Below, one piece after another: positions 2,362-28,259 of a stretch of DNA of 64,000 nt. The stretch lies in contig JAUCBJ010009152.1 in assembly GCA_032718475.1 (NCBI GenBank), positions 8,542 to 72,541 on the forward strand. Reading direction: 5' to 3'. The translations under genes and the position numbers were made by a program. Under the pieces are notes generated by a model. The model saw nothing but the letters and a program-made list of their open reading frames with translations, had not been told where the DNA came from and did not search any database. Source of the DNA: Nemertoderma westbladi (lineage: Eukaryota > Animalia > Xenacoelomorpha). The stretch's first letter is position 1. Every line of letters starts with the position of its first letter.

Positions 2362-2410
2362 GGGGGAAGTTTGGTGAACTGCATTTATGCAGTGAATCCA
2401 AACTTCCCCC
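2362..2410. other. Strong stem-loop in each 3-kb unit
   Basis: GGGGGAAGTTTGG...CCAAACTTCCCCC (13-bp perfect arms) encloses an inner ACTGCAT-TT-ATGCAGT hairpin. Conserved in every unit in the window. Confidence 0.8.
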
Positions 2411-4447
2411 TTTGATATATCATATACTTAAGACATGCTAGGGTGACGGGGAAATATTTGTTACTGTCACACTTTGCTTCCATTTATCCTATCCTTTATT
2501 ATTACCCCAGTCAGATAAGAGATAATAAATCAGTAAAAACTAAACTAAACTGTCTTTCATGCAAACAAATTTCTAACTAAAGACGGGTGAATGACCATGA
2601 CCATGGAAATAATTTTAAATATAATTGTATATCAACTATTTGGGGAGGCTTCCAAGTTAAACCCGAAAACAATTATTTTGTTACATAGTAAATAACGTTG
2701 TATGTTCTTCTTCCTCTCATAATAAAATATAAATGAAATATCTCAGATCGCTATGCCCTGTAACATTTCACAACCAAAATATTTAAGTGTGAAAAGTGTA
2801 GGCCTACCACACTCCGCCCAAACAACCGCAAACGCATAGCCAACAAATTTAACAAAAGGTTACATACATGTTGGGTTCATGACGAGATGAGTGAAAATTG
2901 ATCGCGTAATATAAAGTAAAAAATTAAGAGACGGGCTGGCTCTCCTCCACTTTCTTACCCAATGGATATGTTGTTGTAATAATCTAATTTTGGAGCGGCT
3001 TTCTCTCGGTGGGATAAATATTTCTCCATTTGACGCAACACCGCCGCGGTCGCTATGAGGGAGGTGAATACCGCGGCCGCTCCTAAAGCCGCAGGCCATC
3101 GCTAACTATATAGGTTAACTTGGGATTCTGGGGGACTTTTCGATGAAGGAATTGACCAATTTTTTTTATTTTCGCACCAGGGGAGCGGCTCGGAATTCTA
3201 AGATATTAGCAACTCTAACATTAGCAAATCTATCCCCTCGACGGACACGGCGGACAAAAAACCGTCATTTTTTCGACTTTTTTAAAAAATTTTTGAAAGG
3301 CGCTCTACAGTGGCTCGAAAAAACCCTAGGTTATTGCTTAGCCGACGCCGGGATACGATAGAAGGGATTAATTAGTGAATTCGATTTTTTTTTCAAAAAA
3401 GATTACCACGCCTTTTTCCCGAAATTGTCCGTCAAAGTTGAAAAAACGGACAAAATGGCTTTGCGGGATCCACTCTAACTCGGCTAATATTAATCGTACG
3501 GGGACGAAAGTAACGCGGCTGGAAAGGGGAAGAGTGGTACTACCTTTGTATCGAATGGGGGTAAGATATTTATTAATATTTCGGGTGTAAAAAGGGGCCG
3601 TAACTTTGTCCGTTTTTTCCATATTTTTTACATAATTAATATTTCCAAAATTTTTAATTCGACAACGCTAGTAGGAATCTGCCAATTCTTTTTCGGAAAG
3701 CGTAGAAGACCACAGGGGCTACATTCCTATCGAATGGGGGTACAAAAAATATGTAGGCAAAGGGGTCCAAAAAGGGCCAGAAAATAATAAAAAGTTTATA
3801 ACTATAACAACTTTTTTATTTTAGACTCTAGAAGGTTAAAGTACATTTTATACGGTTAATATCGATACGGGGAATCCAAATATTCGATTGGTTTTGCCGC
3901 GCAAACGATATTAAAAAAATGAGGGCCCAAATTAAAATTTCACGCTTCAAACTCGCTTCGCGGGAACTCGTCTAGCTCGAAAAATACATAAGGTCTGGGA
4001 GACTTATTTAAACAGTCTTATAGAGCGTCAAATTATCTATCTTTCAACGGTAGTTACAACGCCATAGCTATTATATAACTGGAGCGGCAGACGATCGTGT
4101 GAAATATACTACTTATAAAAAAGGGACGAAAAAATTTTTTTTTAATAAATCGCCATTACATTATAATTTAACTTTTTGCGACAAAAGTTCCTGTAAAATG
4201 TAGCAAATTAACTCCACTATCTTTTTTCTTAACATTAATAATTAAAATAACGAGTTTTAAGGGTCGAAAAATATCGTGTAATTTTGGCCCTTTTTTTTCA
4301 TTTTTTTTGGGGCCAAAAGTACCCCCTCTCAAAAGATAGAAAAAAAAAATTACGGCAAAGAATATACCAATTTTATTGAATTTGGAGCACCAGAACCGAA
4401 GTTAGAGCGAATTTAGTCAAAAATTAAAAATATTTTTAAATTAAGAA

Positions 4448-4521
4448 TGGTCAATATTGGGTTTCGAACCCACGAACTTAGGTATCGTTAACGTGATTGA
4501 TAACCACTAGACTACGTGACC
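4448..4521 (-). pseudogene. tRNA-derived (tRNA-like) sequence in 3-kb unit
   Basis: Minus strand GGTCACGTAGTCTAGTGGTTATCAATCACGTTAACGATACCTAAGTTCGTGGGTTCGAAACCCAATATTGACCA: A-box TAGTCTAGTGG, B-box GGTTCGAAACC, T-arm TGGG/CCCA. Confidence 0.62.
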
Positions 4522-7461
4522 AAGAGAATTCGAAATTTTCGAGTGATTATTTTTAAACATCAATAACTTCTGTTCTACAGGACCGTTTGATCTGAAACTT
4601 TTTTCATTGGATAGAGGATAGATTGTAGTGTGTGAAATAGGATACAACTTGGGAAAAGACGCATGTGCACTTAGTGCATAATGCACTTAAAAAGTACACA
4701 TTTTTTCGATATTTTAAACACTGTTATTTCCAGTTCTATTCATCGTAGAATGTTATTTTTTGGATTAAAATGTAGTTTGGAATGATTTCTAACTATAATC
4801 GTAACATTTGTTTAACTTTTTATGTCTATAAAGTGACTTAAAATGTCCATGAATATGGTCCATAATCGCAAATCCAGATTTATTAAATTGGATTTCTGAC
4901 ACTTTTAGCGACTGACACTTGATCATACACCATCGTAGATCGGTAGAGGATAAACATAAGTTTGTTAAATAAGAGCCACCATTACGATCTGCTAAAGTGC
5001 ATTTGTACAAATAAGTGTGCAAAAGTGCAAATTTTTTAATAAGGTCAAATTATATAGTATTGGGTTATTTTCTTTGCAGATACTTTATTTTCATATTAAT
5101 ATATTGTTTGGACCTTACTGAGCGCATTAGGGATAAGTGTACAAATAACCGGCCCTTATGAGTCTTCGATTGGGTAAATTAATAAAACATAAGGTTGTAT
5201 AGTATAATATTCTAAAAACCAGTGTGATATTAAATGCACTTTAAATAATAAATAGAAATCAAATAACAATTGGACCACACAATTAAAAACTCGCACAATT
5301 TTGTACTTATTATATCGCTTCAAATTAATTCAACAGTGGATATTTGGGGGAAGGGGGAAGTTACAGTGTGCATTCGGGGGAAGTTTGGTGAACTGCATTT
5401 ATGCAGTGAATCCAAACTTCCCCCTTTGAGATATCATATACTTAAGACATGCTAGGGTGACGGGGAAATATTTGTTACTGTCACAGTTTGCTTCCATTTA
5501 TCCTATCCTTTATTATTACCCCAGTCAGATAAGAGATAATAAATCAGTAAAAACTAAACTAAACTGTCTTTCATGCAAACAAATTTCTAACTAAAGACGG
5601 GTGAATGACCATGACCATGGAAATAATTTTAAATATAATTGTATATCAACTATTTGGGGAGGCTTCCAAGTTAAACCCGAAAACAATTATTTTGTTACAT
5701 AGTAAATAACGTTGTATGTTCTTCTTCCTCTCATAATAAAATATAAATGAAATATCTCAGATCGCTATGCCCTGTAACATTTCACAACCAAAATATTTAA
5801 GTGTGAAAAGTGTAGGCCTACCACACTCCGCCCAAACAACCGCAAACGCATAGCCAACAAATTTAACAAAAGGTTACATACATGTTGGGTTCATGACGAG
5901 ATGAGTGAAAATTGATCGCGTAATATAAAGTAAAAAATTAAGAGACGGGCTGGCTCTCCTCCACTTTCTTACCCAATGGATATGTTGTTGTAATAATCTA
6001 ATTTTGGAGCGGCTTTCTCTCGGTGGGATAAATATTTCTCCATTTGACGCAACACCGCCGCGGTCGCTATGAGGGAGGTGAATACCGCGGCCGCTCCTAA
6101 AGCCGCAGGCCATCGCTAACTATATAGGTTAACTTGGGATTCTGGGGGACTTTTCGATGAAGGAATTGACCAATTTTTTTTATTTTCGCACCAGGGGAGC
6201 GGCTCGGAATTCTAAGATATTAGCAACTCTAACATTAGCAAATCTATCCCCTCGACGGACACGGCGGACAAAAAACCGTCATTTTTTCGACTTTTTTAAA
6301 AATTTTTTGAAAGGCGCTCTACAGTGGCTCGAAAAAACCCTAGGTTATTGCTTAGCCGACGCCGGGATACGATAGAAGGGATTAATTAGTGAATTCGATT
6401 TTTTTTTCAAAAAAGATTACCACGCCTTTTTCCCGAAATTGTCCGTCAAAGTTGAAAAAACGGACAAAATGGCTTTGCGGGATCCACTCTAACTCGGCTA
6501 ATATTAATCGTACGGGGACGAAAGTAACGCGGCTGGAAAGGGGAAGAGTGGTACTACCTTTGTATCGAATGGGGGTAAGATATTTATTAATATTTCGGGT
6601 GTAAAAAGGGGCCGTAACTTTGTCCGTTTTTTCCATATTTTTTACATAATTAATATTTCCAAAATTTTTAATTCGACAACGCTAGTAGGAATCTGCCAAT
6701 TCTTTTTCGGAAAGCGTAGAAGACCACAGGGGCTACATTCCTATCGAATGGGGGTACAAAAAATATGTAGGCAAAGGGGTCCAAAAAGGGCCAGAAAATA
6801 ATAAAAAGTTTATAACTATAACAACTTTTTTATTTTAGACTCTAGAAGGTTAAAGTACATTTTATACGGTTAATATCGATACGGGGAATCCAAATATTCG
6901 ATTGGTTTTGCCGCGCAAACGATATTAAAAAAATGAGGGCCCAAATTAAAATTTCACGCTTCAAACTCGCTTCGCGGGAACTCGTCTAGCTCGAAAAATA
7001 CATAAGGTCTGGGAGACTTATTTAAACAGTCTTATAGAGCGTCAAATTATCTATCTTTCAACGGTAGTTACAACGCCATAGCTATTATATAACTGGAGCG
7101 GCAGACGATCGTGTGAAATATACTACTTATAAAAAAGGGACGAAAAAATTTTTTTTTAATAAATCGCCATTACATTATAATTTAACTTTTTGCGACAAAA
7201 GTTCCTGTAAAATGTAGCAAATTAACTCCACTATCTTTTTTCTTAACATTAATAATTAAAATAACGAGTTTTAAGGGTCGAAAAATATCGTGTAATTTTG
7301 GCCCTTTTTTTTCATTTTTTTTGGGGCCAAAAGTACCCCCTCTCAAAAGATAGAAAAAAAAAATTACGGCAAAGAATATACCAATTTTATTGAATTTGGA
7401 GCACCAGAACCGAAGTTAGAGCGAATTTAGTCAAAAATTAAAAATATTTTTAAATTAAGAA

Positions 7462-7535
7462 TGGTCAATATTGGGTTTCGAACCCACGAACTTAGGTATC
7501 GTTAACGTGATTGATAACCACTAGACTACGTGACC
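7462..7535 (-). pseudogene. tRNA-like sequence in 3-kb unit
   Basis: Copy of 4448-4521. Confidence 0.6.
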
Positions 7536-8777
7536 AAGAGAATTCGAAATTTTCGAGTGATTATTTTTAAACATCAATAACTTCTGTTCTACAGGACCGT
7601 TTGATCTGAAACTTTTTTCATTGGATAGAGGATAGATTGTAGTGTGTGAAATAGGATACAACTTGGGAAAAGACGCATGTGCACTTAGTGCATAATGCAC
7701 TTAAAAAGTACACATTTTTTCGATATTTTAAACACTGTTATTTCCAGTTCTATTCATCGTAGAATGTTATTTTTTGGATTAAAATGTAGTTTGGAGTGAT
7801 TTCTAACTATAATCTTAACATTTGTATATCTTTTTATATCTATAAAGTGACTTAAAATGTCCATGAATATGGTCCAAAATCGCAAATGTCGCGATTTATT
7901 AAATTGGATTTTTTACACTTTTAGTGACTGACACTTGATCATACACCATCGTAGATCGGTAGAGGATAAACATAAGTTTGTTAAATAAGAACCACCATTA
8001 CGATCTGCTAAAGTGCACTTGTACAAATAAATGTGCAAAAGTGCAAATTTTTTAATAAGGTCAAATTATATAGCATTGGGTTCTTTTCTTTGCAGATACT
8101 TTATTTTCATATTAATATGTTGTTTGGCTCATACTGAGCGCATTAGGTATATGCGTACAAATAACCGGCCCTTATTAAGGCTTCGATTGGGTTAATAAAT
8201 AAAACATAAGGTTGTAATATTCTAAAAAACCAGTGTGATATTAAATGCACTTTAAACAATAAATAGAGATCAATTAACAAATGGACCACACAATAAAAAA
8301 CTCGCACAATTTTGTACTTATTATATCGCTTCAAATTAATTCAACAGTGGATATTTGTGGGAAGGGGGAAGTTACAGTGTGCATTCGGGGGAAGTTTGGT
8401 GAACTGCATTTATGCAGTGAATCCAAACTTCCCCCTTTGAGATATCATATACTTAAGACATGCTAGGGTGACGGGGAAATATTTGTTACTGTCACACTTT
8501 GCTTCCATTTATCCTATCCTTTATTATTACCCCAGTCAGATAAGAGATAATAATCAGTAAAAACCAAACTAAACTGTCTTTCATGCAAACAAATTTCTAA
8601 CTAAAGACGGGTGAATGACCATGACCATGGAAATAATTTTAAATATAATCGTATATCAACTATTTGGGGAGGCTTCCAAACCCAAAAACAATTATTTCGT
8701 TACATATAATATAGTAAATAACGTTGTATGTTCTTCTTCCTCTCATAATAAAATGTATATGAAATATCTCTGATCGC

Positions 8778-8877
8778 NNNNNNNNNNNNNNNNNNNNNNN
8801 NNNNNNNNNNNNNNNNNNNNNNNNNNNNNNNNNNNNNNNNNNNNNNNNNNNNNNNNNNNNNNNNNNNNNNNNNNNNN
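8778..8877. other. Assembly gap (100 N)
   Basis: Run of exactly 100 N; the repeat phase is discontinuous across it. Confidence 0.99.
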
Positions 8878-9014
8878 CTTCTCAAAAGATTAAGAAAAAA
8901 ATTACGGCAAAGAATATACCAATTTTATTGAATTTGGACCACCAGAACCGAAGTTAGAGCGATTTTAGTGAAAAAATAAAAATAATTTTTTTTGCAAAAA
9001 AATTAAGAATGGTC

Positions 9015-9088
9015 AGGTCAATATTGGGTTTCGAACCCACGAACTTAGGTTTCATTAACGTGATTGATAACCACTAGACTATGTGACC
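9015..9088 (-). pseudogene. tRNA-like sequence in 3-kb unit
   Basis: Variant copy of 1433-1506. Confidence 0.6.
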
Positions 9089-10587
9089 AATAGAAATTGA
9101 AATTTTCGAGTGACTATTTTTAAACATAAATAACTTCGGTTCTAGAGGGCCGTTTAATCTGAAACTTTTTTCATTGGATAGAGAATAGATTGTAGTGTGT
9201 GAAATAGGATACAACTTGGGAAAAGACGCATGTGCACTTAGTGCAAAATGCACTTAAATAGTGAACATTTTTTCGATATTTCAAACCCTATTATTTCCAG
9301 TTCTATTCATCGTAGAATGTTATTTTTTGGATTAAAATGTAGTTTGGAATGATTTCTAACTATAATCGTAACATTTGTTTAACTTTTTATGTCTATAAAG
9401 TGACTTAAAATGTCCATGAATATGGTCCAAAATCGCAAATCCAGATTTATTAAATTGGATTTTTGACACTTTTAGCGACTGACACTTGATCATACACCAT
9501 CGTAGATCGGTAGAGGATAAACATAAGTTTGTTAAATAAGAGCCACCATTACGATCTGCTAAAGTGCATTTGTACAAATAAGTGTGCAAAAGTGCAAATT
9601 TTTTAATAAGGTCAAATTATATAGTATTGGGTTATTTTCTTTGCAGATACTTTATTTTCATATTAATATGTTGTTTGAACCTTACTGAGCGCATTAGGGG
9701 ATATGCGTACAAATAACCGGCCCTTATGAGGCTTCGATTGGGTAAATTAATAAAACATAAGGTTGTATAGTATAATATTCTAAAAACCAGTGTGATATTA
9801 AATGCACTTTAAATAATAAATAGAAATCAAATAACAATTGGACCACACAATTAAAAACTCGCACAATTTTGTACTTATTATATCGCTTCAAATTAGTTCA
9901 ACAGTGGATATTTGTGGGAAGGGGGAAGTTACAGTGTGCATTCGGGGGAAGTTTGGTGAACTGCATTTATGCAGTGAATCCAAACTTCCCCCTTTGATAT
10001 ATCATATACTTAAGACATGCTAGGGTGACGGGGAAATATTTGTTACTGTCACACTTTGCTTCCATTTATCCTATCCTTTATTATTACCCCAGTCAGATAA
10101 GAGATAATAAATCAGTAAAAACTAAACTAAACTGTCTTTCATGCAAACAAATTTCTAACTAAAGACGGGTGAATGACCATGACCATGGAAATAATTTTAA
10201 ATATAATTGTATATCAACTATTTGGGGAGGCTTCCAAGTTAAACCCGAAAACAATTATTTTGTTACATTAGTAAATAACGTTGTATGTTCTTCTTCCTCT
10301 CATAATAAAATATAAATGAAATATCTCAGATCGCTATGCCCTGTAACATTTCACAACCAAAATATTTAAGTGTGAAAAGTGTAGGCCTACCACACTCCGC
10401 CCAAACAACCTCAAACGCATAGCCAACAAATTTAACAAAAGGTTACATACATGTTGGGTTCATGACGAGATGAGTGAAAATTGATCGCGTAATATAAAGT
10501 AAAAAATTAAGAGACGGGCTGGCTCACGTCCACTTTCTTACCCAATGGATATGTTGTTGTAATAATCTAATATTGGGGCGGCTTTCT

Positions 10588-11231
10588 CTCGTTCTAACTT
10601 CTGATTGATGGACTCCATATAGGAGTACTGGTTCTAACTGCTGTATGATGGACTCCATATAGGAGTACTGGTTCTAACTGATGTATGATGGACTCCATAT
10701 AGGAGTACTGGTTCTAACTGATGTATGATGGACTCCACATAGGAGTACTGGTTCTAACTTTTGTATGATGGACTCCATATAGGAGTACTGATTCTAACTG
10801 CTGTATGATGGACTCCATATAGGAGTACTGGTTCTAACTTCTGATTGATGGACTCCATAAAGGAGTACTAGTTCTAACTTCTGATTGATGGACTCCATAT
10901 AGGAGTACTGGTTCTAACTGCTGTATGATGGACTCCATATAGGAGTACTGGTTCTAACTTCTCATTGATGGACTCCATATAGGAGTACTGGTTCTAACTT
11001 CCCATTGATGGACTCCATATAGGAGTACTGGTTCTAACTTCTGATTGATGGAATCCATATACGAGTACTGGTTCTAACTGATGTATGATAGACTCCACAT
11101 AGGAGTACTGGTTCTAACTTTTGTATGATGGACTCCATATAGGAGTACTGATTCTAACTGCTGTATGATGGACTCCATATAGGAGTACTGGTTCTAACTT
11201 CTGATTGATGGACTCCATAAAAGAGTACTAG
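10588..11231. repeat. 16 monomers of the 40-bp satellite separating the two 3-kb arrays
   Basis: 10591-11230 is 640 bp, which is 16 x 40 bp of GTTCTAACT(G/T)CTG..GATGGACTCCATATAGGAGTACTG. Confidence 0.97.
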
Positions 11232-12678
11232 GTGGGATAAATATTTCTCCATTTGACGCAACACCGCCGCGGCCGCTATGAGGGAGGTGAATACCGCGGC
11301 CGCTCCTAAAGCCGCAGGCCATCGCTAACTATATAGGTTAACTTGGGATTCTGGGGGACTTTTCGATGAAGGAATTGACCAAATTTTTTTATTTTCTCAC
11401 CAGGGGAGCGGCTCGGAATTCTAAGATATTAGCAAGTCTAACATTATTAAATCTAACCCTTCGACGGACACGGCGGACAAAAAACCGTCATTTTTTCAAC
11501 AATTTTAAAATTTTTTTGAAAGGCGCTCTACAGTGGCTCGAAAAAACCCTAGGTTATTGCTTAGCCGACGCCGGGATACGATAGAAGGGATTAATTAGTG
11601 AATTCGTTTTTTTTTTCAAAAAAGATTACCACGCCTTTTTTCCGAAAATGTCCGTCAAAGTTGAAAAAACGGACAAAATGACTTTGCGGGATCCGCTATA
11701 ACTCGGCTAATATTAATCGTACGGGGACGAAAGTAACGCGGTTGGAAAGAGGAAGAGTGGTACTACCTTCGTATCGAATGGGGGTAAGATATTTATTAAA
11801 ATTTCGGGTGGAAAAAGGGGCTGTAAATTTGTACGTTTTTGTCCGTCTTTTTTGGAAAACTTATTTCCGAAATGTTTAATTCGACAACGCGGGTAGGAAT
11901 CCACTAATTATTTTATAAAACTCGTAGAAGACCATTGGGGCTACGTTCCTATCGAACGGGGGTACAAAAAATATGTCGGCAATAGGGGCCAAAAAGGGCC
12001 AGAATTTGTAAAGTAGTTTTTATCGAATAATTTTTTATTTTTAACTTTAGTTGGTTAAGGTACATTCTATACAGTCAATATCCATACGGGGAATTCAAAT
12101 ATGCTATCGGTTTTGCTCTAAGGATGATATTAAAAAAATGAGGGCCAAAATTATAATTTCGCGCTTCAAACTTGCTTCACGGGAAATCGTCTAGCTCGAA
12201 AACTACTTAACTTACGGGAGATTTGTTTACACAGACTTATAGTGCGTTAAATTATCTATCTAACAGCGTTAATCACAGCGCCGGAGGTATTATAAAACTG
12301 GAGCGGCAGGCGATCGTGTGAAATATAATATTTATAAAAAGGGACGAAAAATTTTTTTTTTAACAAATCGCTATTCCATTATAATTAAGCGTATTGCGCC
12401 AAAAGTACCTGTAAAAAGTATCAAATTAACTCCGCTATCTTTTATCTTAACATATATAATTAAAATTACGAATTTTAAGGGTCGAAAAATATCGCGTTAT
12501 TTTGGCCCTTTTTTTAATTTTTTTGGGGCCAAAAATAACCCCTTCTCAAAAGATTAAGAAAAAAATTACGGCAAAGAATATACCAATTTTATTGAATTTG
12601 GACCACCAGAACCGAAATTAGAGCGATTTTAGTGAAAAAATAAAAATAATTTTTTTTGCAAAAAAATTAAGAATGGTC

Positions 12679-12752
12679 AGGTCAATATTGGATTTCGAAC
12701 CCGCGAACTTAGGTTTCATTAACGTGATTGATAACCACTAGACTATGTGACC
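12679..12752 (-). pseudogene. tRNA-like sequence in 3-kb unit
   Basis: Copy of 1433-1506. Confidence 0.6.
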
Positions 12753-15692
12753 AAGAGAATTTGAAATTTTCGAGTGACTATTTTTAAACATAAATAACTT
12801 CGGTTCTACAGGGCCGTTTAATCTGAAACTTTTTTCATTGGATAGAGGATAGATTGTAGTGTGTGAAATAGGATAAAACTTGGGAAAAGACTTATGTGCA
12901 CTTAGTGCAAAATGCATTTAAATAGTGAACATTTTTTCGATATTTCAAACACTATTATTTCCAGTTCTATTCATCGTAGAATGTTATTTTTTGGATTAAA
13001 ATGTAGTTTGGAATGATTTCTAACTATAATCGTAACATTTGTTTAACTTTTTATGTCTATAAAGTGACTTAAAATGTCCATGAATATGGTCCATAATCGC
13101 AAATCCAGATTTATTAAATTGGATTTCTGACACTTTTAGCGACTGACACTTGATCATACACCATCGTAGATCGGTAGAGGATAAACATAAGTTTGTTAAA
13201 TAAGAGCCACCATTACGATCTGCTAAAGTGCATTTGTACAAATAAGTGTGCAAAAGTGCAAATTTTTTAATAAGGTCAAATTATATAGTATTGGGTTATT
13301 TTCTTTGCAGATACTTTATTTTCATATTAATATATTGTTTGGACCTTACTGAGCGCATTAGGGATAAGTGTACAAATAACCGGCCCTTATGAGTCTTCGA
13401 TTGGGTAAATTAATAAAACATAAGGTTGTATAGTATAATATTCTAAAAACCAGTGTGATATTAAATGCACTTTAAATAATAAATAGAAATCAAATAACAA
13501 TTGGACCACACAATTAAAAACTCGCACAATTTTGTACTTATTATATCGCTTCAAATTAATTCAACAGTGGATATTTGGGGGAAGGGGGAAGTTACAGTGT
13601 GCATTCGGGGGAAGTTTGGTGAACTGCATTTATGCAGTGAATCCAAACTTCCCCCTTTGAGATATCATATACTTAAGACATGCTAGGGTGACGGGGAAAT
13701 ATTTGTTACTGTCACAGTTTGCTTCCATTTATCCTATCCTTTATTATTACCCCAGTCAGATAAGAGATAATAAATCAGTAAAAACTAAACTAAACTGTCT
13801 TTCATGCAAACAAATTTCTAACTAAAGACGGGTGAATGACCATGACCATGGAAATAATTTTAAATATAATTGTATATCAACTATTTGGGGAGGCTTCCAA
13901 GTTAAACCCGAAAACAATTATTTTGTTACATAGTAAATAACGTTGTATGTTCTTCTTCCTCTCATAATAAAATATAAATGAAATATCTCAGATCGCTATG
14001 CCCTGTAACATTTCACAACCAAAATATTTAAGTGTGAAAAGTGTAGGCCTACCACACTCCGCCCAAACAACCGCAAACGCATAGCCAACAAATTTAACAA
14101 AAGGTTACATACATGTTGGGTTCATGACGAGATGAGTGAAAATTGATCGCGTAATATAAAGTAAAAAATTAAGAGACGGGCTGGCTCTCCTCCACTTTCT
14201 TACCCAATGGATATGTTGTTGTAATAATCTAATTTTGGAGCGGCTTTCTCTCGGTGGGATAAATATTTCTCCATTTGACGCAACACCGCCGCGGTCGCTA
14301 TGAGGGAGGTGAATACCGCGGCCGCTCCTAAAGCCGCAGGCCATCGCTAACTATATAGGTTAACTTGGGATTCTGGGGGACTTTTCGATGAAGGAATTGA
14401 CCAATTTTTTTTATTTTCGCACCAGGGGAGCGGCTCGGAATTCTAAGATATTAGCAACTCTAACATTAGCAAATCTATCCCCTCGACGGACACGGCGGAC
14501 AAAAAACCGTCATTTTTTCGACTTTTTTAAAAAATTTTTGAAAGGCGCTCTACAGTGGCTCGAAAAAACCCTAGGTTATTGCTTAGCCGACGCCGGGATA
14601 CGATAGAAGGGATTAATTAGTGAATTCGATTTTTTTTTCAAAAAAGATTACCACGCCTTTTTCCCGAAATTGTCCGTCAAAGTTGAAAAAACGGACAAAA
14701 TGGCTTTGCGGGATCCACTCTAACTCGGCTAATATTAATCGTACGGGGACGAAAGTAACGCGGCTGGAAAGGGGAAGAGTGGTACTACCTTTGTATCGAA
14801 TGGGGGTAAGATATTTATTAATATTTCGGGTGTAAAAAGGGGCCGTAACTTTGTCCGTTTTTTCCATATTTTTTACATAATTAATATTTCCAAAATTTTT
14901 AATTCGACAACGCTAGTAGGAATCTGCCAATTCTTTTTCGGAAAGCGTAGAAGACCACAGGGGCTACATTCCTATCGAATGGGGGTACAAAAAATATGTA
15001 GGCAAAGGGGTCCAAAAAGGGCCAGAAAATAATAAAAAGTTTATAACTATAACAACTTTTTTATTTTAGACTCTAGAAGGTTAAAGTACATTTTATACGG
15101 TTAATATCGATACGGGGAATCCAAATATTCGATTGGTTTTGCCGCGCAAACGATATTAAAAAAATGAGGGCCCAAATTAAAATTTCACGCTTCAAACTCG
15201 CTTCGCGGGAACTCGTCTAGCTCGAAAAATACATAAGGTCTGGGAGACTTATTTAAACAGTCTTATAGAGCGTCAAATTATCTATCTTTCAACGGTAGTT
15301 ACAACGCCATAGCTATTATATAACTGGAGCGGCAGACGATCGTGTGAAATATACTACTTATAAAAAAGGGACGAAAAAATTTTTTTTTAATAAATCGCCA
15401 TTACATTATAATTTAACTTTTTGCGACAAAAGTTCCTGTAAAATGTAGCAAATTAACTCCACTATCTTTTTTCTTAACATTAATAATTAAAATAACGAGT
15501 TTTAAGGGTCGAAAAATATCGTGTAATTTTGGCCCTTTTTTTTCATTTTTTTTGGGGCCAAAAGTACCCCCTCTCAAAAGATAGAAAAAAAAAATTACGG
15601 CAAAGAATATACCAATTTTATTGAATTTGGAGCACCAGAACCGAAGTTAGAGCGAATTTAGTCAAAAATTAAAAATATTTTTAAATTAAGAA

Positions 15693-15766
15693 TGGTCAAT
15701 ATTGGGTTTCGAACCCACGAACTTAGGTATCGTTAACGTGATTGATAACCACTAGACTACGTGACC
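15693..15766 (-). pseudogene. tRNA-like sequence in 3-kb unit
   Basis: Copy of 4448-4521. Confidence 0.6.
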
Positions 15767-18706
15767 AAGAGAATTCGAAATTTTCGAGTGATTATTTTTA
15801 AACATCAATAACTTCTGTTCTACAGGACCGTTTGATCTGAAACTTTTTTCATTGGATAGAGGATAGATTGTAGTGTGTGAAATAGGATACAACTTGGGAA
15901 AAGACGCATGTGCACTTAGTGCATAATGCACTTAAAAAGTACACATTTTTTCGATATTTTAAACACTGTTATTTCCAGTTCTATTCATCGTAGAATGTTA
16001 TTTTTTGGATTAAAATGTAGTTTGGAATGATTTCTAACTATAATCGTAACATTTGTTTAACTTTTTATGTCTATAAAGTGACTTAAAATGTCCATGAATA
16101 TGGTCCATAATCGCAAATCCAGATTTATTAAATTGGATTTCTGACACTTTTAGCGACTGACACTTGATCATACACCATCGTAGATCGGTAGAGGATAAAC
16201 ATAAGTTTGTTAAATAAGAGCCACCATTACGATCTGCTAAAGTGCATTTGTACAAATAAGTGTGCAAAAGTGCAAATTTTTTAATAAGGTCAAATTATAT
16301 AGTATTGGGTTATTTTCTTTGCAGATACTTTATTTTCATATTAATATATTGTTTGGACCTTACTGAGCGCATTAGGGATAAGTGTACAAATAACCGGCCC
16401 TTATGAGTCTTCGATTGGGTAAATTAATAAAACATAAGGTTGTATAGTATAATATTCTAAAAACCAGTGTGATATTAAATGCACTTTAAATAATAAATAG
16501 AAATCAAATAACAATTGGACCACACAATTAAAAACTCGCACAATTTTGTACTTATTATATCGCTTCAAATTAATTCAACAGTGGATATTTGGGGGAAGGG
16601 GGAAGTTACAGTGTGCATTCGGGGGAAGTTTGGTGAACTGCATTTATGCAGTGAATCCAAACTTCCCCCTTTGAGATATCATATACTTAAGACATGCTAG
16701 GGTGACGGGGAAATATTTGTTACTGTCACAGTTTGCTTCCATTTATCCTATCCTTTATTATTACCCCAGTCAGATAAGAGATAATAAATCAGTAAAAACT
16801 AAACTAAACTGTCTTTCATGCAAACAAATTTCTAACTAAAGACGGGTGAATGACCATGACCATGGAAATAATTTTAAATATAATTGTATATCAACTATTT
16901 GGGGAGGCTTCCAAGTTAAACCCGAAAACAATTATTTTGTTACATAGTAAATAACGTTGTATGTTCTTCTTCCTCTCATAATAAAATATAAATGAAATAT
17001 CTCAGATCGCTATGCCCTGTAACATTTCACAACCAAAATATTTAAGTGTGAAAAGTGTAGGCCTACCACACTCCGCCCAAACAACCGCAAACGCATAGCC
17101 AACAAATTTAACAAAAGGTTACATACATGTTGGGTTCATGACGAGATGAGTGAAAATTGATCGCGTAATATAAAGTAAAAAATTAAGAGACGGGCTGGCT
17201 CTCCTCCACTTTCTTACCCAATGGATATGTTGTTGTAATAATCTAATTTTGGAGCGGCTTTCTCTCGGTGGGATAAATATTTCTCCATTTGACGCAACAC
17301 CGCCGCGGTCGCTATGAGGGAGGTGAATACCGCGGCCGCTCCTAAAGCCGCAGGCCATCGCTAACTATATAGGTTAACTTGGGATTCTGGGGGACTTTTC
17401 GATGAAGGAATTGACCAATTTTTTTTATTTTCGCACCAGGGGAGCGGCTCGGAATTCTAAGATATTAGCAACTCTAACATTAGCAAATCTATCCCCTCGA
17501 CGGACACGGCGGACAAAAAACCGTCATTTTTTCGACTTTTTTAAAAAATTTTTGAAAGGCGCTCTACAGTGGCTCGAAAAAACCCTAGGTTATTGCTTAG
17601 CCGACGCCGGGATACGATAGAAGGGATTAATTAGTGAATTCGATTTTTTTTTCAAAAAAGATTACCACGCCTTTTTCCCGAAATTGTCCGTCAAAGTTGA
17701 AAAAACGGACAAAATGGCTTTGCGGGATCCACTCTAACTCGGCTAATATTAATCGTACGGGGACGAAAGTAACGCGGCTGGAAAGGGGAAGAGTGGTACT
17801 ACCTTTGTATCGAATGGGGGTAAGATATTTATTAATATTTCGGGTGTAAAAAGGGGCCGTAACTTTGTCCGTTTTTTCCATATTTTTTACATAATTAATA
17901 TTTCCAAAATTTTTAATTCGACAACGCTAGTAGGAATCTGCCAATTCTTTTTCGGAAAGCGTAGAAGACCACAGGGGCTACATTCCTATCGAATGGGGGT
18001 ACAAAAAATATGTAGGCAAAGGGGTCCAAAAAGGGCCAGAAAATAATAAAAAGTTTATAACTATAACAACTTTTTTATTTTAGACTCTAGAAGGTTAAAG
18101 TACATTTTATACGGTTAATATCGATACGGGGAATCCAAATATTCGATTGGTTTTGCCGCGCAAACGATATTAAAAAAATGAGGGCCCAAATTAAAATTTC
18201 ACGCTTCAAACTCGCTTCGCGGGAACTCGTCTAGCTCGAAAAATACATAAGGTCTGGGAGACTTATTTAAACAGTCTTATAGAGCGTCAAATTATCTATC
18301 TTTCAACGGTAGTTACAACGCCATAGCTATTATATAACTGGAGCGGCAGACGATCGTGTGAAATATACTACTTATAAAAAAGGGACGAAAAAATTTTTTT
18401 TTAATAAATCGCCATTACATTATAATTTAACTTTTTGCGACAAAAGTTCCTGTAAAATGTAGCAAATTAACTCCACTATCTTTTTTCTTAACATTAATAA
18501 TTAAAATAACGAGTTTTAAGGGTCGAAAAATATCGTGTAATTTTGGCCCTTTTTTTTCATTTTTTTTGGGGCCAAAAGTACCCCCTCTCAAAAGATAGAA
18601 AAAAAAAATTACGGCAAAGAATATACCAATTTTATTGAATTTGGAGCACCAGAACCGAAGTTAGAGCGAATTTAGTCAAAAATTAAAAATATTTTTAAAT
18701 TAAGAA

Positions 18707-18780
18707 TGGTCAATATTGGGTTTCGAACCCACGAACTTAGGTATCGTTAACGTGATTGATAACCACTAGACTACGTGACC
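18707..18780 (-). pseudogene. tRNA-like sequence in 3-kb unit
   Basis: Copy of 4448-4521. Confidence 0.6.
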
Positions 18781-20275
18781 AAGAGAATTCGAAATTTTCG
18801 AGTGATTATTTTTAAACATCAATAACTTCTGTTCTACAGGACCGTTTGATCTGAAACTTTTTTCATTGGATAGAGGATAGATTGTAGTGTGTGAAATAGG
18901 ATACAACTTGGGAAAAGACGCATGTGCACTTAGTGCATAATGCACTTAAAAAGTACACATTTTTTCGATATTTTAAACACTGTTATTTCCAGTTCTATTC
19001 ATCGTAGAATGTTATTTTTTGGATTAAAATGTAGTTTGGAGTGATTTCTAACTATAATCGTAACATTTGTTTAACTTTTTATGTCTATAAAGTGACTTAA
19101 AATGTCCATGAATATGGTCCAAAATCGCAAATGTCGCGATTTATTAAATTGGATTTTTTACACTTTTAGTGACTGACACTTGATCATACACCATCGTAGA
19201 TCGGTAGAGGATAAACATAAGTTTGTTAAATAAGAACCACCATTACGATCTGCTAAAGTGCACTTGTACAAATAAATGTGCAAAAGTGCAAATTTTTTAA
19301 TAAGGTCAAATTATATAGCATTGGGTTCTTTTCTTTGCAGATACTTTATTTTCATATTAATATGTTGTTTGGCTCATACTGAGCGCATTAGGGATATGCG
19401 TACAAATAACCGGCCCTTATTAAGGCTTCGATTGGGTTAATAAATAAAACATAAGGTTGTAATATTCTAAAAAACCAGTGTGATATTAAATGCACTTTAA
19501 ACAATAAATAGAGATCAATTAACAAATGGACCACACAATAAAAAACTCGCACAATTTTGTACTTATTATATCGCTTCAAATTAATTCAACAGTGGATATT
19601 TGGGGGAAGGGGGAAGTTACAGTGTGCATTCGGGGGAAGTTTGGTGAACTGCATTTATGCAGTGAATCCAAACTTCCCCCTTTGAGATATCATATACTTA
19701 AGACATGCTAGGGTGACGGGGAAATATTTGTTACTGTCACACTTTGCTTCCATTTATCCTATCCTTTATTATTACCCCAGTCAGATAAGAGATAATAATC
19801 AGTAAAAACCAAACTAAACTGTCTTTCATGCAAACAAATTTCTAACTAAAGACGGGTGAATGACCATGACCATGGAAATAATTTTAAATATAATCGTATA
19901 TCAACTATTTGGGGAGGCTTCCAAACCCAAAAACAATTATTTCGTTACATATAATATAGTAAATAACGTTGTATGTTCTTCTTCCTCTCATAATAAAATG
20001 TATATGAAATATCTCTGATCGCTGTGCCCTGAACATTTCACAACCAAAATGTTTCAGTGTGAAAAGTGTAGGCCTACCACACCCCGCCCAAACAACCGCA
20101 AACGCATAGCCAACAAATTTAACAAAAGGTTACATACATGTTGGGTTCATGACGAGATGAGTGAAAATTGAGCGCGTAATATAAAGTAAAAAATTAAGAG
20201 TCGGGCCTGGCTCTTCTCCACTTTCTTACCCAATGGAAATGTTGTTGTTTTAATCTAATATTGGGGCGGCTTTCT

Positions 20276-20467
20276 CTAGTTCTAACTGCTGTATGATGGA
20301 CTCCATATAGGAGTACTGATTCTAACTACTGTATGATAGACTCCATATAGGAGTACTGGTTCTAACTGCTGTATGATGGACTCCATATAGGAGTACTGAT
20401 TCTAACTGCTGTATGATAGACTCCATATAGGAGTACTGGCTCTAACTTCTGATTGATGGACTCCATA
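20276..20467. repeat. ~4.7 monomers of the 40-bp satellite; ends in the left TSD (TCCATA, 20462-20467)
   Basis: Same 40-bp monomer as the main array. Confidence 0.97.
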
Positions 20468-20806
20468 AGTAGTAGGGTCTTGGGCGGCTCTGTGACAGTT
20501 AGACCTCACTGACACCCATTGGGTGTCATATGACACCCAATTATCACCCCATGGGTGTCATTGGGTGTCATTGGCGCCAGACTGTCTGGGTGACACCTCC
20601 CAATTAGGCTAATTAGACCCTAATTGACAGGTGTCATCAATTAATTAGTACAATTAAACCCTAACAGGTATCATTTAGGGTTTAATTGATTATCCTAATT
20701 AATCAGACTGATTAGCGCCCTGACACACAATGGGTCATCAGTGATGTCTAACTGTCACAGAGCCGGCTCAAGAGGGTGTCATAAGTGACACCGCAGCTCT
20801 TTTATT
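20468..20806 (+). repeat. Left terminal inverted repeat (339-bp core)
   Basis: Reverse complement of 29148-29486 with one visible mismatch (CAGGTATCA vs CAGGTGTCA). Degenerate similarity continues inward. Confidence 0.95.
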
Positions 20807-21233
20807 CATTAATACTTATTTATATTTAATTTTAATTAATTATTTGCATTTTATTTTATATTCGTATTTATTCATTTGTACTTTATTTTATATTAATTAT
20901 TCATTTATACTTTATGGGTATACAGCTCCCTTACTGGTAACTAATTACTCTTATCTATATCCAGACAGCTTTTTCGTTGACCTTTGACCTTTGACCCCTC
21001 AATTAGCTTTAACCAAGCAACAGCATATTAATGATAGTTGTATCCAAGCGCCCCTGCCCCCCACCCCGTGACAGCTCTGATTACTAATTACTCTTACATA
21101 TATCCAACCGCCTGCAGTTCCATAGTCTGCCGCTAGAGGGCGTATTATCTGAAAATTAACATCTTCTCTAACTTTGTTATTTTTCAATTTAACTATTTAT
21201 ATATCCAGGCAGCCCCTATCATAACAACCAGGG

Positions 21234-21285
21234 ACCGGCAGGACACATGGAAACGATTTTATTACTATGAAATACATTGAAATAT
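21234..21285 (-). pseudogene. Short duplicated fragment of the TBP-like gene 3' end
   Basis: CCGGCAGGACACATGGAAACGATTTTATTACTATGAAATACATTGAAATAT closely matches ~22343-22393 and encodes YFNVFHSNKIVSMCPAG. Confidence 0.8.
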
Positions 21286-21774
21286 ATTCTCACATTAACT
21301 CCCAAGGTTGCATACTATCACTATAGCTGGGAGAGTCAAAGCTAGAGTGTATGCTAGAGTTATCCAAGAGCTAGGAAAAAGAATAATGCTCTTCTAGGGT
21401 CCAAACTCACATCCATCCAATTAGAGAACTAAGCAAATGACCAGCTTGAAGGCCTTAGACCCTTAATCTGAGGCATCGAGCAGCCAATGAGAGAGCAGAT
21501 GTGAGTACAGTGGTAAAGCCCACCCATGGTGAGATAACGTCACACTAACTCTCAAGGATAGTTATACTCACCGTTCAAATATCCCTCGCAAACCAGTTTC
21601 CCCCCAACATCTAAAGTAATCCACTTCAATGTAAAATATATAATGCAATATAACTCGAATATTTCTGTTTTTATAATATAAATAATAATTGTAACATAAA
21701 TTTATAATTTAACACAAATATAAGGTGAAAATTCACTTTAACATAGAGTAACTAAACTAAACATAAAATAGGAT

Positions 21775-22230
21775 AAAAACAGATGGTCATACTGTAGGCT
21801 CAATCCCTACTCGTGTCCGTTTTATGAAAAATATAAAAAGTAAACATAGAATAACTAGAGTACCTAAACTAAACACAAAATAGGAAAAACAGAAGGTCAC
21901 GGGCTCAATCCCTACTCGTATCCCGTTTTATGGAAAATAAACAGGAGGTCATAGGTTCAATCCCTACTCGCGACCATTATAAATCCAACACGAAATAAGT
22001 TAAACCAGGGTTCGAATCCTAATCATGAAAATATAAAAAGTAAACATAGAATAACTAGAGTAACTAAACTAGACATAAATTAGGAAAAACAGAAGGTCAG
22101 GGGTTCAATCCCTACTCGCGACCATTATAAAACCAACACAAAATAAGTTAAACCAGGGTTCGAGTCCTACTAATGCAATTATAAAAAGTAGGTAACACGG
22201 ATGGTCACGGATTCAAACCCTACTCACGGA
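21775..22230 (+). repeat. Cluster of seven tRNA T-arm/B-box-like motifs in degenerate direct repeats
   Basis: GTAGGCTCAATCCCTAC, GGGCTCAATCCC, ATAGGTTCAATCCCTACTCGCGACCA, GGGTTCGAATCCT, GGGGTTCAATCCCTACTCGCGACCA, GGGTTCGAGTCCT and GGATTCAAACCC, compared with the B-box consensus GGTTCRANTCC. Confidence 0.7.
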
Positions 22231-22293
22231 AAAATAAAAACCAACACAAAATAAATAATATAGTAAACTTTCATGTATACCATAGTAAATAAT

Positions 22294-22809
22294 CTAATTT
22301 AATAATAAAGTTTGTAAAATAGATAATGATTCGGGGAATTCACCGGCTGGACACATGGAAACGATTTTATTACTATGAAATACACTGAAATATGCACGTC
22401 CTATATATATTCTAATCGCGCAAAATAATTCGGGGGTATAGCTAATAAATATTGCTTTATTATTAATTGTATGATGTCCACATTTTTTCATTAATAATTT
22501 AAAATTAACACTTGGAAAAATAATAGTTTGTGTTTCGGTATTAAGTTTCAAATTTTGTAATTGCATACCAATAGTTTGTTTTAAATAAAGCAATTCACTA
22601 GCTAAATTATTGCAAAGGCCTACAATTGTTACTGCGCCGCTGGGAAATAGCATTATAGTTGAATCGTCACCTTTGTAGATAAACATGTTTGGTTTTAAGC
22701 AACTTTGACCTGTAGTTTGCTGTGAAATTTTCTCTAGTTCAAATTTGGCAATGTTTTTTCCGGTAAACTGTTTATTGGTTATTTCTATTTTGTAGCTCAA
22801 TTTCTTATT
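22294..22809 (-). CDS. Divergent TATA-binding protein (TBP)-like protein; no ATG at the 5' end, probably a spliced 3' exon
   Basis: ~170 aa with two TBP-like repeats. STIMLFPSGAVTIVG resembles TBP TTALIFSSGKMVCTG, and SYTPELFCAIRIY...FSVFHSNKIV resembles SYEPELFPGLIYR...LLIFVSGKVV. The ORF-track start is a TTG, preceded by the acceptor-like TTTAATTTTTCTAG (AG at 22811-22810). Confidence 0.72.
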   Translation of the reverse strand, partial: NKKLSYKIEITNKQFTGKNIAKFELEKISQQTTGQSCLKPNMFIYKGDDSTIMLFPSGAVTIVGLCNNLASELLYLKQTIGMQLQNLKLNTETQTIIFPSVNFKLLMKKCGHHTINNKAIFISYTPELFCAIRIYIGRAYFSVFHSNKIVSMCPAGEFPESLSILQTLLLN

Positions 22810-22823
22810 CTAGAAAAATTAAA

Positions 22824-25800
22824 TTAAATCCTAGTAGGGGGGATTACTACTCGTTTCGCCGGTCTAACAAGCTTAGTGCTATAGTGCCCGTATGGTTTGC
22901 TGCTATATTTACTACTCCAATATGATTTCGTATCCCAGAGCGTTAGTGCCTTCTTATAGACATGACCAGTAAAAATTTGATGCTTACTAGAAGTGAAGGT
23001 AGAGTTATAGCGGAAGAGCATTGCCTCGTTTACAAAACAGTCTGCATAATCCTCGTGTGTTAGTTGCTTAGCGACAACCGATCTAGATACACCTTTGGCG
23101 GTTTTCTTGATTGGGGCATCATAGGATTGAAAACTGTAGACCTTTGGTTTAAGGAAAACCCACTGTTTATACTGCAAACCGCAGCTCTCATCTTTTATGA
23201 AGCCGAGAGCCGCTTTGTGTTTAATGGTATAGAGTGGATGTGTTGTACTGTAGTTGGAAGTATCTAGGAAACCACCCTCAAACATTGCCCGTAGAAAGGT
23301 TAGCTGTGGTGTATTAGTTACGCTTAGCATTAGAGAATCCGTGTCACCGGCTAGACAGCGAATCTGGCAACCCAGTTTTTGTTCTAGAGGCTTCAGTTTG
23401 TTGTAAAATAGGTCGTACATCTGTAGCTTAGATAGATCTAGTATAGTGCAACCGATGAACACGCCCTGATTTAGGCAAACAGCCTCTTTAGTGAAAGTAT
23501 GACCACTCAAGTTGGGGGTAAATACAACAAACGATTCGTGATTGGGCTTGGCTAAGAGCAAATCGCATTGTTCGTCGCTATTGCATAACCTGAAAGAAAC
23601 GCGGTCTCTAACCTTTTGGAGGCATTTCCCATACAAGGCATTGTTCATCAACTTATAAAATAGGACCTCGAATGGGTTATTTGCCGACTGTCTTTTATTG
23701 GTATTAAAACTAATGTAGTCCTTGAAAATATATTTTTGTGAGAAAGAGTAGACCCTATGTACTTGTGTAAGTTTAAGACCGAGCTTCAAATAGAGTTGAA
23801 GTAGCTTAATATGGATACCGTATTCAACCTTATTAAACTGATGTAGTAGTAGCTTAGTACAGGTATCGTTGTATGGTCTACAGGTGGCCGTATCGGTGAG
23901 ATTGTAATGCTCCCAAAGATCTTCCATGTATTCGCTAAGAAAGGATTTAGGGACTGACATCTTCTCCGCTCCTAGAGGCAGATCGGCGGTCAAATCATGA
24001 ATTTCTTTCGGGTAATGTAGATCAACTATGCAATAATAACCAGTATCCCCACTCGCGTCTACTGTAGCTAGGTCTATGGGGGTAGTTACGAGTTTAATAT
24101 TAGCGTAGGGAAGTTTCTGGCTCAGGGCGCAGCCGTAAAGGTTATTCGCATCGATGGGAATTAGATATTTCTCGGGGAGACTGGAGTCATAGTCGGGTTT
24201 ATCGGGAATATTTGCGTCTACGGAATGTGTATTCAAGAATACTAGACCACCCCTAATATTTGTTTCAAAGTCCGAGTAGATGGAAGCGTCTGATAGTAAT
24301 TGAATTTCTGATTGCGTGAATTTCAGCGCCGCGTCGTAAGTTAATCCAGGGGCAGTGAAGTACATTACGGGCTCGAGTCCATAATTAGTAAGACAGAGGG
24401 ATCGGAACTGCTCGAAAGTATCAGCCAATAGGGTAACATCTAGAACCAAATAGCCAATCATATAGTCAAAGATTGTTGCGCAGTTTAATTCATCCCAAGT
24501 AGTAAGCGCGCGCTGATAGTTTTCTGCGCTACATTGTTCCAATTTGAGATCATTATAGAAGCTTTCTAATGGGGGGAGTGTAGTTTCGTGTAGGTTTGAA
24601 ATATTTTGAATGTAGGAATATGGGAATACACCCTTGTTTTTTATTGTGTTATCGCTAATGTTGGGATAGAGTTGGGTCATTTGAGCTAGTGTATGGGGTA
24701 TGGCTGTTGCTAGGTTACTGTTATTTTTAGTGAGATAACTACTAAGATTATCTAGGCTGGCAGTCATAAACTGATAGGAATCTAGAAAATTAATGGAGAT
24801 ACTTTCTTTAGCGTTGGCTGTTGGTGTACTCGGATCGATTGGGAAGCTAACTTTAAGGTGAATATAAGTTTCGGTGTTTTTTGGTATTACGGTCATTTTC
24901 CAGTGTGTTCTAGAACTATCGGTCATTCCTTCTTTTAGTAGTAAATGCATATCGAATTTCCTCAGGTTATGAAATATAATATAAAAATTATTCCGTTTTA
25001 GGGAAAGTTTCCTGTTGCAGCTGACGCAAGCAGCCCCCCGATACTCCCCGCTATAATGATCGTGATCGCGGACTTTGGTGCTGAGATTGTCATTGAGGTT
25101 TAAATTATGAGAATCGGGGGTTAAATTACAGTTGCAGACGTAGCATTGTGTAGCGTTATTAAAGTCAGTTTGTTGGCTAGTAGTGAGTTGCATGGGGGCG
25201 TGCGTGTTTGTACTAGAAATGGACCAATCGTATAACTCCCTACAATGACTTTCCATAGCGGTTAGAAAGTCGCGCATTACGTGGTTACTGCCATCGTCGC
25301 GGAAAATTTGAACATCTGTTTTAGGAGGGTTAATTAATTTCTGATTTGGTACTGTATAAAAGGCTGCCGCGCTAGCTATATGTTTCTGTGGGAGTTTAAT
25401 ATTGTTTGTAGGTTCTAGAATAGTTTCAATGTCGGCGTATATACAGAAAGGTGGGGATAGAGTCTTATCGTACCTATCAAATTTAACCAAGAGATTTTCG
25501 GGCATATACTCGAGTTGGCGTTTACCCGTATAGCACCGCTCTCGATGTTCTTCCAATGATTTGTCAGTGTAAAAGGCTCTGAGACAGCGTTCGCAGTGCG
25601 TCTTGTTGCCTTTAGAAGTAGCTTTAGTATTTATTAATCTATCTATGTTAGTAATAGCTACGTAGTGGGCGGGGTTTTTGCTTGTGGCTTCGATAAATAA
25701 TAAGTTTAGTACAGTTTTACCGGAACAGTGCGCGCTATCTGGTTGACTTAGGATGGAGAGTTCTTCCGTATTACTCCAATAAAGAAGGTTTATGCAGTAT

Positions 25801-26879: not shown

Positions 26880-27400
26880 CTTGAATCTAGAAAAATAAGT
26901 TGATTATTCATAAAAAAATAAAAAATACTGTATACTTGCTAAAAATAAGGTAAAACAGTAGGTATTAATCGGTTACTAGGCAACAATACTGTGTTTGTAC
27001 AGTTAGGCCTATTGCTGTATTGTAGCATTCAGGCAGTGAAACATAAAGCAGACAGTCAGCAGTGTCTAGTGTAGTAGTGTTAGTGTACCAGCGGTCAGAT
27101 AGTGGCGATAACCAAGACACAATAGCGATGGCAGTTATTATTCGTGGAAAGAGGGTCTATAAACAGCAGTCAGTCAGTGCAGTAGTGCTAGTGAAATAGT
27201 CTGCCAGAAGTCAGACGTACCGGTAGCGTTAACCAATAGAAATCAACGATAGGCTTAGCTAATCGCTGTGTGAGAACTCAGTTAGTCAGTAGGATATATA
27301 ATGAAAACTGCAGTATTCAGTGTTGTTCAGTAGGGTCTATATCGCTACTATGATGGCATTAGGCTAACTCGAATGATCCGGTAGCGCTAGTTGGGTAGAC

Positions 27401-28212: not shown

Positions 28213-28259
28213 AATAATACAACTCTACAAGTGGGTTGTTGATCGATGATAACAAATAA

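Follow-up and report, generated by a model that had tools for sequence, protein, structure and literature searches.

The window, i.e., the whole stretch of 64,000 nucleotides analysed here from contig JAUCBJ010009152.1 of Nemertoderma westbladi (assembly GCA_032718475.1), contains seven copies, U1 to U7, of a 3.0-kb unit that were found by a self-search and are set in a satellite with a 40-bp monomer. This unit is a non-autonomous element with sharply defined limits and an insertion signature specific for a core, meaning the four monomer bases at which unit and satellite meet, and its copies are mosaics of two left-half variants (A and B) and two right-half variants (X and Y). The layout is as follows.

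1-3008, + strand: U1, whose first 15 nt lie outside the window
3009-6022, + strand: U2, with 0 differences from U6
6023-8777, + strand: U3, truncated by an assembly gap
8778-8877: assembly gap of 100 N
8878-10591, + strand: U4, the right-hand 1.7 kb of a unit of A type; terminal core CTCG at 10588-10591, with satellite directly after
10592-11231, + strand: satellite spacer of 16 monomers; empty CTAG site at 10868, terminal target core CTAG at 11228-11231
11232-14253, + strand: U5, a full unit of 3022 bp, left variant A and right variant X; terminal CTCG at 14250-14253
14254-17267, + strand: U6, 3014 bp, left variant B and right variant X; terminal CTCG
17268-20279, + strand: U7, 3012 bp, left variant B and right variant Y; terminal CTAG at 20276-20279
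20280-20467, + strand: about 4.7 satellite monomers, followed by an unrelated Polinton-like insertion
29488-64000, + strand: main satellite, with empty CTAG sites at 31884, 32596, 42633, 42993, 43273 and 43673

All three junctions between unit and satellite (CTCG at 10588-10591, CTAG at 11228-11231 and CTAG at 20276-20279) occupy the same four bases of the monomer, at the position AGTA-NNNN-TTCTAAC, and the distance from 10588 to 11228 is 640 bp, i.e., exactly 16 monomers (16.0 copies by TRF). A single CTCG stands at each of the four junctions between units (ending at 3008, 6022, 14253 and 17267), and the left ends, five out of five, begin at the identical base. The 3-kb unit sequence has no terminal inverted repeat (TIR), long terminal repeat (LTR) or A-tail. 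Its 11 short open reading frames (ORFs) of 60-99 aa gave only sub-threshold matches to Pfam, and a six-frame Pfam scan of U5 and U7, with stops written as X, produced nothing below an E value of 0.04. The shared junction position, the spacer of exactly 16 monomers, the lone CTCG between units, the lack of TIRs, LTRs and poly(A), and the non-coding character of the element had all been put forward in a preliminary description of this DNA, and each was borne out; in addition, the array extends upstream of the part described there, over 1-10591, with the 100-N gap within it.

The 693 intact satellite cores in the window are mostly CTGG (618), followed by CTGA (49), TTGA (16), CTAG (7), CAGG (2) and TTGG (1), and none is CTCG; further CTAG sites in the main satellite comprise one irregular site at 42020 and eight in a 37-bp variant. 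The core that matches the junctions is the variant carried by those 7 of 693 monomers, and it renders the monomer near-palindromic (AGTA-CTAG-TTCT). The 200 nt before 11228 have their five best matches exclusively at empty CTAG sites, so the CTAG at 11228 is the satellite's own. On the other side of the element, the 76 nt after the core of U4 are identical to those after the empty CTAG sites at 10868, 31884, 32596 and 42633, and the 44 nt after the core of U7 are identical to those after the empty CTAG sites at 42993, 43273 and 43673. CTAG makes up 4 of 15 cores with the U4-type flank and 3 of 10 with the U7-type flank, against 7 of 693 overall, and the flanks of the three-unit array U5-U7, when joined, rebuild an empty CTAG site. 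Judged from these flanks, what the element inserted into was likely not just any monomer but the rare one with CTAG. Because the flank classes of U4 and U7 differ, diverging 8 bp past the core, and the two units differ by 74 substitutions over 1726 columns, their right junctions appear to have formed separately, i.e., there were likely at least two insertions, both at CTAG monomers. For two independent insertions to share the same phase and strand, p is about 1/80. By way of control, this satellite has three further insertions, which lie at three phases different from that one. The preliminary description had the element targeting the satellite as such; entry at a CT(A/C)G core stands, but what is preferred appears to be the CTAG monomer and not just any monomer, with the satellite likely serving as a rich, harmless source of CTAG rather than being a proven sole target. 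The 40-bp satellite of 29488-64000 also has a higher-order structure, in which CTAG variants recur at intervals of 7, 9 and 10 monomers, and it grades into the 37-bp variant within that interval; a small hairpin lies just before the core in each monomer.

The cores at the two ends of the element likely have different origins. CTCG comes next after all five complete X-type right ends (U1, U2, U4, U5 and U6), whether satellite (U4) or another unit follows, and the Y-type right end of U7 carries CTAG. As CTCG is found at 0 of the 693 satellite cores, the right end of the element likely carries it, without any target being duplicated. In the simplest account, the terminal CT(C/A)G belongs to the element, and insertion takes place either immediately 3' of a CTAG target or by recombination inside that tetramer. 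The CT(A/C)G core of the preliminary description stands as an entry core, with the refinement that it is asymmetric, the left core being that of the target and the right one likely element-borne. The mismatch between CTAG and CTCG is also a built-in marker that can separate the reaction of a double-strand recombinase from that of a single-strand HUH enzyme once more junctions are read.

The alternative to an element-borne core is a 4-bp duplication of CTAG followed by one later mutation to CTCG that was spread by duplication and conversion, the element then being of the DDE type or target-primed (non-LTR). The flanking of the trimer by CTAG on both sides, with flanks that rebuild an empty site, would suit such a history, as would the X-type ends in the window, which are at least 98% alike and may have one ancestor, and the presence of a Pol III-like cassette (listed below) in the unit. 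We nevertheless consider it quite unlikely, given that the unit lacks the TIRs required of a DDE transposon with a 4-bp target-site duplication (TSD), and has neither the 3' tail of a target-specific non-LTR element or SINE (short interspersed element) nor variable 5' truncation, all five left ends beginning at the same base. CTCG before satellite at U4, and before B-type units, would moreover call for extra precise events, namely deletions.

That the array is a mosaic is evident from a comparison of its units, as U5 and U6 are identical past alignment column 1731 and U6 and U7 are identical up to column 1790. The array also contains one exact duplication.

12955-19040, + strand: exact tandem duplication with a period of 3014 and 3072 identical bases (12955-16026 = 15969-19040), its breakpoints lying mid-unit

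Per 100 columns, variants A and B have 10-25 differences over columns 600-1500 vs 1-10 over the first 600, and the low divergence of these first 600 bp would be expected either for ends required in cis or for conversion. The trimer U5-U7 can be read as a dimer of two diverged copies (A-X and B-Y) to which a mid-unit duplication was added, as from an unequal crossover or possibly in assembly, U6 being the hybrid that the duplication produced. Because two diverged variants and an exact mid-unit duplication are present, the array is not a clonal concatemer or clonal rolling-circle product, and some of the back-to-back copying is likely due to duplication at a later stage. The mechanistic evidence in the array comes down to the base-exact joint between the A and B variants, which fits either a second insertion at the core of the first copy or the joining of the right end of one neighbour to the left end of the other. 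The head-to-tail arrays of the preliminary description are present, but they are poor evidence for circles or rolling-circle copying, since the trimer comes down to a dimer and a duplication of the unequal-crossover type. The circles and the satellite targeting proposed there are still plausible, with less backing from the array than that description gave them. Upstream, 1-8777 is 99.5% identical to 11247-20017 (35 substitutions between U1 and U5, 7 between U3 and U7 and 0 between U2 and U6), and it may be a second copy of the locus or a haplotype duplicate, adjoining the gap.

Duplications of this sort are what an explanation without any targeting would build on, i.e., one chance insertion or microhomology joint was amplified with the satellite into a macrosatellite, and part of the array is perhaps an assembly duplication. 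That 1-8777 duplicates 11247-20017 beside a gap, that U2 equals U6 exactly, that the 3072-bp duplication is exact and that the left flank of U5 is not assignable to one CTAG class are all in its favour. The right ends of U4 and U7 are harder to reconcile with it, as they are 74 substitutions apart over 1726 columns, have flank classes that diverge 8 bp past the core and yet both match CTAG sites, and so is a joint between two diverged variants that is base-exact at the core. We judge this explanation to be very unlikely, and the same properties of U4 and U7 speak against the descent of all junctions from one amplified insertion, which the preliminary description had named as the finding that would overturn it.

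The ends and the interior of the unit were also searched for signals, which are given here by their positions in U5 and U6.

11235-11250: imperfect palindrome of 16 bp, 3 bp inside the left end, 88% self-complementary, with no stable hairpin
11299 (- strand), 11405 (+), 12300 (+) and 14237 (+): repeated 8-mer GGAGCGGC in U5
13608-13655: strong internal hairpin (-17.9 kcal/mol, z -8), the best among the 60-nt windows scanned
15688-15768, - strand: Pol III-like cassette with A-box- and B-box-like motifs and paired ends, read from the sequence and present in each unit

The four copies of GGAGCGGC in U5 were reached in 0 of 200 shuffles, and none occurs in the Polinton-like element or the satellite; U7 has three copies and one variant. 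In U5 the 8-mer is placed close to each end and, internally, once within a stretch that the variants conserve. Its first and last copies are inverted relative to each other and make an asymmetric subterminal pair (9 nt and 67 nt from the ends) that matches at 11 of 12 positions in U5 (equalled in 3 of 300 shuffles) and over the 8-mer in U7 (26 of 300). The copies of GGAGCGGC are candidate protein-binding sites. End fragments of 35-123 nt, on both strands, fold no better than their shuffles (z -0.5 to +1.4). For the Pol III-like cassette, ARAGORN reported no tRNA and Rfam gave only Vault, at an E value of 4.5 and below the gathering threshold. The unit additionally contains diverged internal repeats at 11748-12010 and 12843-13343, with spacings of 178 and 332 bp and 60-67% identity.

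The comparison set of the preliminary description, i.e., tyrosine-recombinase (YR) and HUH systems, was the right one for a TIR-less element at a CT(A/C)G core. For an HUH element of the IS91 or Helitron kind, the Rep protein would nick after the left CTAG as its origin, copy the strand as far as the element's CT(C/A)G and insert a single-stranded circle after another CTAG. One likeness is to IS91, in which a target tetramer adjoins oriIS and terIS has a similar cleavage tetramer, CTCG, that belongs to the element itself (PMC13181058); it inserts beside CTTG or GTTC and cleaves at its own CTCG. As described there, IS91 and our element have in common a target tetramer at one end and a similar element tetramer at the other, no TSD, and an end-to-end junction with one tetramer, although the CTCG common to both may be a coincidence. 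Differences are that IS91 is bacterial, has subterminal palindromes at both ends and targets CTTG/GTTC, whereas the unit has a weak palindrome on the left, none on the right, and no Rep. The imperfect palindrome just inside the left end does lend some support to an HUH mechanism, and the asymmetric subterminal inverted pair (in U5, 3 of 300 shuffles) bears a loose resemblance to the ends of Helitron2/HINE; tandem arrays derived from Helitrons are known as well, to judge from the text seen of PMC12001565. Set against these points, no stable hairpin was found at either end on either strand (z as above), when HUH elements generally need terminal hairpins, according to the sections consulted of PMC10288648; there is no 5'-TC or 5'-T, and the target is neither A|T nor TT; in U7 the subterminal pair falls short of significance; and the array, in which two variants are joined and a duplication breaks mid-unit, is not a clonal concatemer. 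Taken together, an HUH rolling-circle origin is a possibility to be kept in view, but an unlikely one.

The eukaryotic HUH elements resemble the unit in more general ways, e.g., Helitron1, Helitron2/Helentron (HINE, DINE-1) and the Replitrons are TIR-less, with abundant non-autonomous copies, tandem copies and internal diverged repeats, and a loose, asymmetric subterminal inverted pair is a further likeness. Helitron1 was rejected, as neither strand starts with TC, there is no end hairpin, the terminal tetramer is CTCG and not CTRR, and the target is CTAG|T, i.e., the likeness to the CTRR of Helitrons drawn in the preliminary description fails on the hairpin, the 5'-TC and the A|T target. Helitron2/Helentron (HINE) was rejected for want of a 5'-T and of a TT or T-rich target, features taken from what was accessible of PMC3627910 and PMC4067079. 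The comparison with Replitrons, also made in the preliminary description, holds for the short direct terminal repeat, which the unit has, and not for the right-end hairpin, which was not found; a Y1 HUQ Rep is a Replitron feature, and Replitrons are reported, in the parts of PMC10288648 available, solely from the green lineage, the stramenopiles and likely cryptophytes/haptophytes, with no animal reports. Two further candidates were set aside, Fanzor/IS607 since element and target share no GG core and the right end is unstructured, and IS200/IS605 since there are no end hairpins.

The reading that we favour, though tentatively, is that the unit is a non-autonomous, Crypton-like element that is moved by a YR encoded elsewhere. 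It is preferred because the ends are without hairpins and a target-specific animal precedent exists. The unit agrees with Cryptons in having no TIRs or long direct repeats but a direct terminal repeat of 4-6 bp (CTAG...CT(C/A)G), and in having the donor core at one end and a target core that is nearly the same, as seen at one left and two right satellite junctions. The recombinase would bind the ends, perhaps at the GGAGCGGC sites, and join the right end to the left through one core to give a circle, whose core would then recombine with a genomic CTAG, here within the AGTA-CTAG-TTCT of the rare satellite variant. The outcome would be that the left junction has the core of the target and the right junction that of the element, without a true duplication and, with a core kept at both junctions, a second copy could stack there; alternatively, the right end of one copy might be joined to the left end of its neighbour to give the A-X|B-Y dimer. 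Ordinary unequal crossover would subsequently have made the dimer a trimer and duplicated the block.

Precedents for the parts of this scheme exist. The active CryptonF-1_cRei of Chlamydomonas ends in CACCG, targets CAYCG and is proposed to move by YR recombination, as stated in the text available of PMC9977147; like our element it has its core at the end and a near-identical target core, but it is autonomous with a 5-bp core, whereas here there is no YR gene, the core is of 4 bp, the host is an animal, insertion is into a satellite and copies are stacked. Fungal Cryptons have imperfect pairs of terminal repeats, e.g., TAACTA/TACCTA and AGGTAG/AGWTAT (PMC3212892 supplement 1). The cnidarian CryptonV families are target-specific and lie in microsatellites (PMC8869645, in an excerpt), so that animal YR DNA transposons, some of them inserted specifically in tandem repeats, are on record; the target here is a rare variant of a 40-bp satellite.

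Several points weigh against a Crypton-like passenger with a CTAG target. No recombinase gene lies in the unit and no autonomous partner was found. YR sites typically have inverted arms of 11-13 bp around an overlap of 6-8 bp (PMC3212892, as far as its text was available); the unit has no such arms, there being no dyad symmetry around the unit-unit junction (1-3 of 13 matches, and 6 of 13 at the target), though in that text the arms are not stated to be required for Cryptons. The core is just 4 bp, with one mismatch, and the animal families CryptonA and CryptonI are reported in the same text without terminal repeats. Tandem copies, called typical of Cryptons in the preliminary description, are not so described in what we had of PMC3212892 and PMC9977147. 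With respect to the target, the local density of CTAG monomers is higher (they form 1 of 15 internal cores in the spacer), and by our estimate this reduces the argument from rarity to a p of roughly 0.01-0.02; the CTAG sites of the window are for the most part empty; and a single left junction with satellite is visible, that of U5, with its unassignable flank. Lastly, IS91 has the same core asymmetry, so the geometry cannot separate YR from HUH, and the element files under neither Crypton nor IS91 while the enzyme is unfound, working like either. A more speculative proposal, to which we give little weight, is that the unit is a passenger of an undescribed animal superfamily with an IS91-like, hairpin-poor HUH transposase that reads CTAG, ends at CT(C/A)G, selects the CTAG variants of satellites and seeds 3-kb macrosatellites.

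Beyond the window, part of the stretch is contained in six of nine sequencing runs, five of one organism (organism A, three studies) and one of a second (organism B); in one of the five the share is merely 0.07, no RNA run is listed among the six, and one organism A run may be the source of the window itself. Contigs of four of the six were mapped to 12750-15750, with 5480, 1623, 58 and 18 contigs covering 30, 30, 30 and 29 of 30 bins. One listed contig of run X3 has a depth of 1651, vs 29-39 in five of the eight X3 pieces listed, which suggests a high-copy family, depth not being the same as copy number. Left variant B appears to be a minor variant, since at several positions the entire depth bears the A/U1-type letter. 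The run of organism B provided a contig of 1022 nt with 19 differences. Among the 24 listed matches of contigs over 12750-15750, none has a loose end at the unit-unit junction. In run X4 one contig stops 2 bases past the core and another begins at the last base of the core, and in run X5 one begins at the first base of the element; such ends fit branching at the junction, the flanking sequence beyond them not being visible. Patterns of the left end had no matches in viral contigs or in genome contigs, and all 17 matches in metagenomes were chance 19-mers without further likeness to the unit, satellite or neighbour, i.e., this search produced no partner for the element in any of the three. No publication describing these ends was found in a search that Repbase reports and most subscription journals lay beyond, and PMC10680173 and PMC5753468, in the parts seen, contain nothing on ends or targets. 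The strong-hairpin segment of the unit, 13595-13760, has a depth peak in runs X3 and X4, and X4 contigs join it to unrelated 255-nt flanks; this segment is possibly a module common to another repeat family.

Sequence-specific animal DNA transposons are rare, the only ones named in the passage available of PMC8869645 being Pokey, CryptonV and Dada. An element of high copy number that chooses a variant forming 1% of satellite monomers, and does so without a duplication, would point to a site-specific recombinase or HUH enzyme that is, or until recently was, active in an animal, and its exact ends and core are a direct handle for finding that enzyme. The array further suggests a route by which a transposon can become a macrosatellite, i.e., with precise end-to-end joining first and unequal crossover later.

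Other insertions lie in the same satellite. At 20468-29487 there is a 9-kb Polinton/Maverick-like element with 379-bp TIRs at 97% and a 6-bp TSD, TCCATA; it was rejected as a partner of the 3-kb unit, having its own TIRs and TSD and a different phase, and no sequence in common with the unit. It contains an intact ORF of 1359 aa for a protein-primed PolB (22824-26903, - strand), with C2H2 and Endonuclease VII-like stretches, for which the nearest Atlas clusters with taxa are those of a ctenophore, mollusc, arthropod and echinoderm, as would suit an animal host; of the ORFs listed, none was recognisable as an integrase or a capsid gene. After PolB, an ORF of 171 aa (22294-22809, - strand) weakly matches TATA-binding protein (PF00352, E 5e-4, 20.4 bits against a cut-off of 22.9), making it a faint candidate for a TATA-binding protein-like gene in this element. 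Inside the same element, at 21790-22255, a short motif reminiscent of a tRNA T-arm/B-box is dispersed in four to five copies (families D2 and D4), which are possible small Pol III RNAs or origin repeats. An insertion of 1.3 kb at 59697-61020, at another phase of the satellite, has short (CCTGA)-like terminal repeats and replaces about 15 bp of monomer. Finally, 61640-62488 (- strand) is likely a 5'-truncated non-LTR retroelement; it has a poly(A) tail and what looks like a target duplication of 13 bp, and is located in the 37-bp satellite variant.

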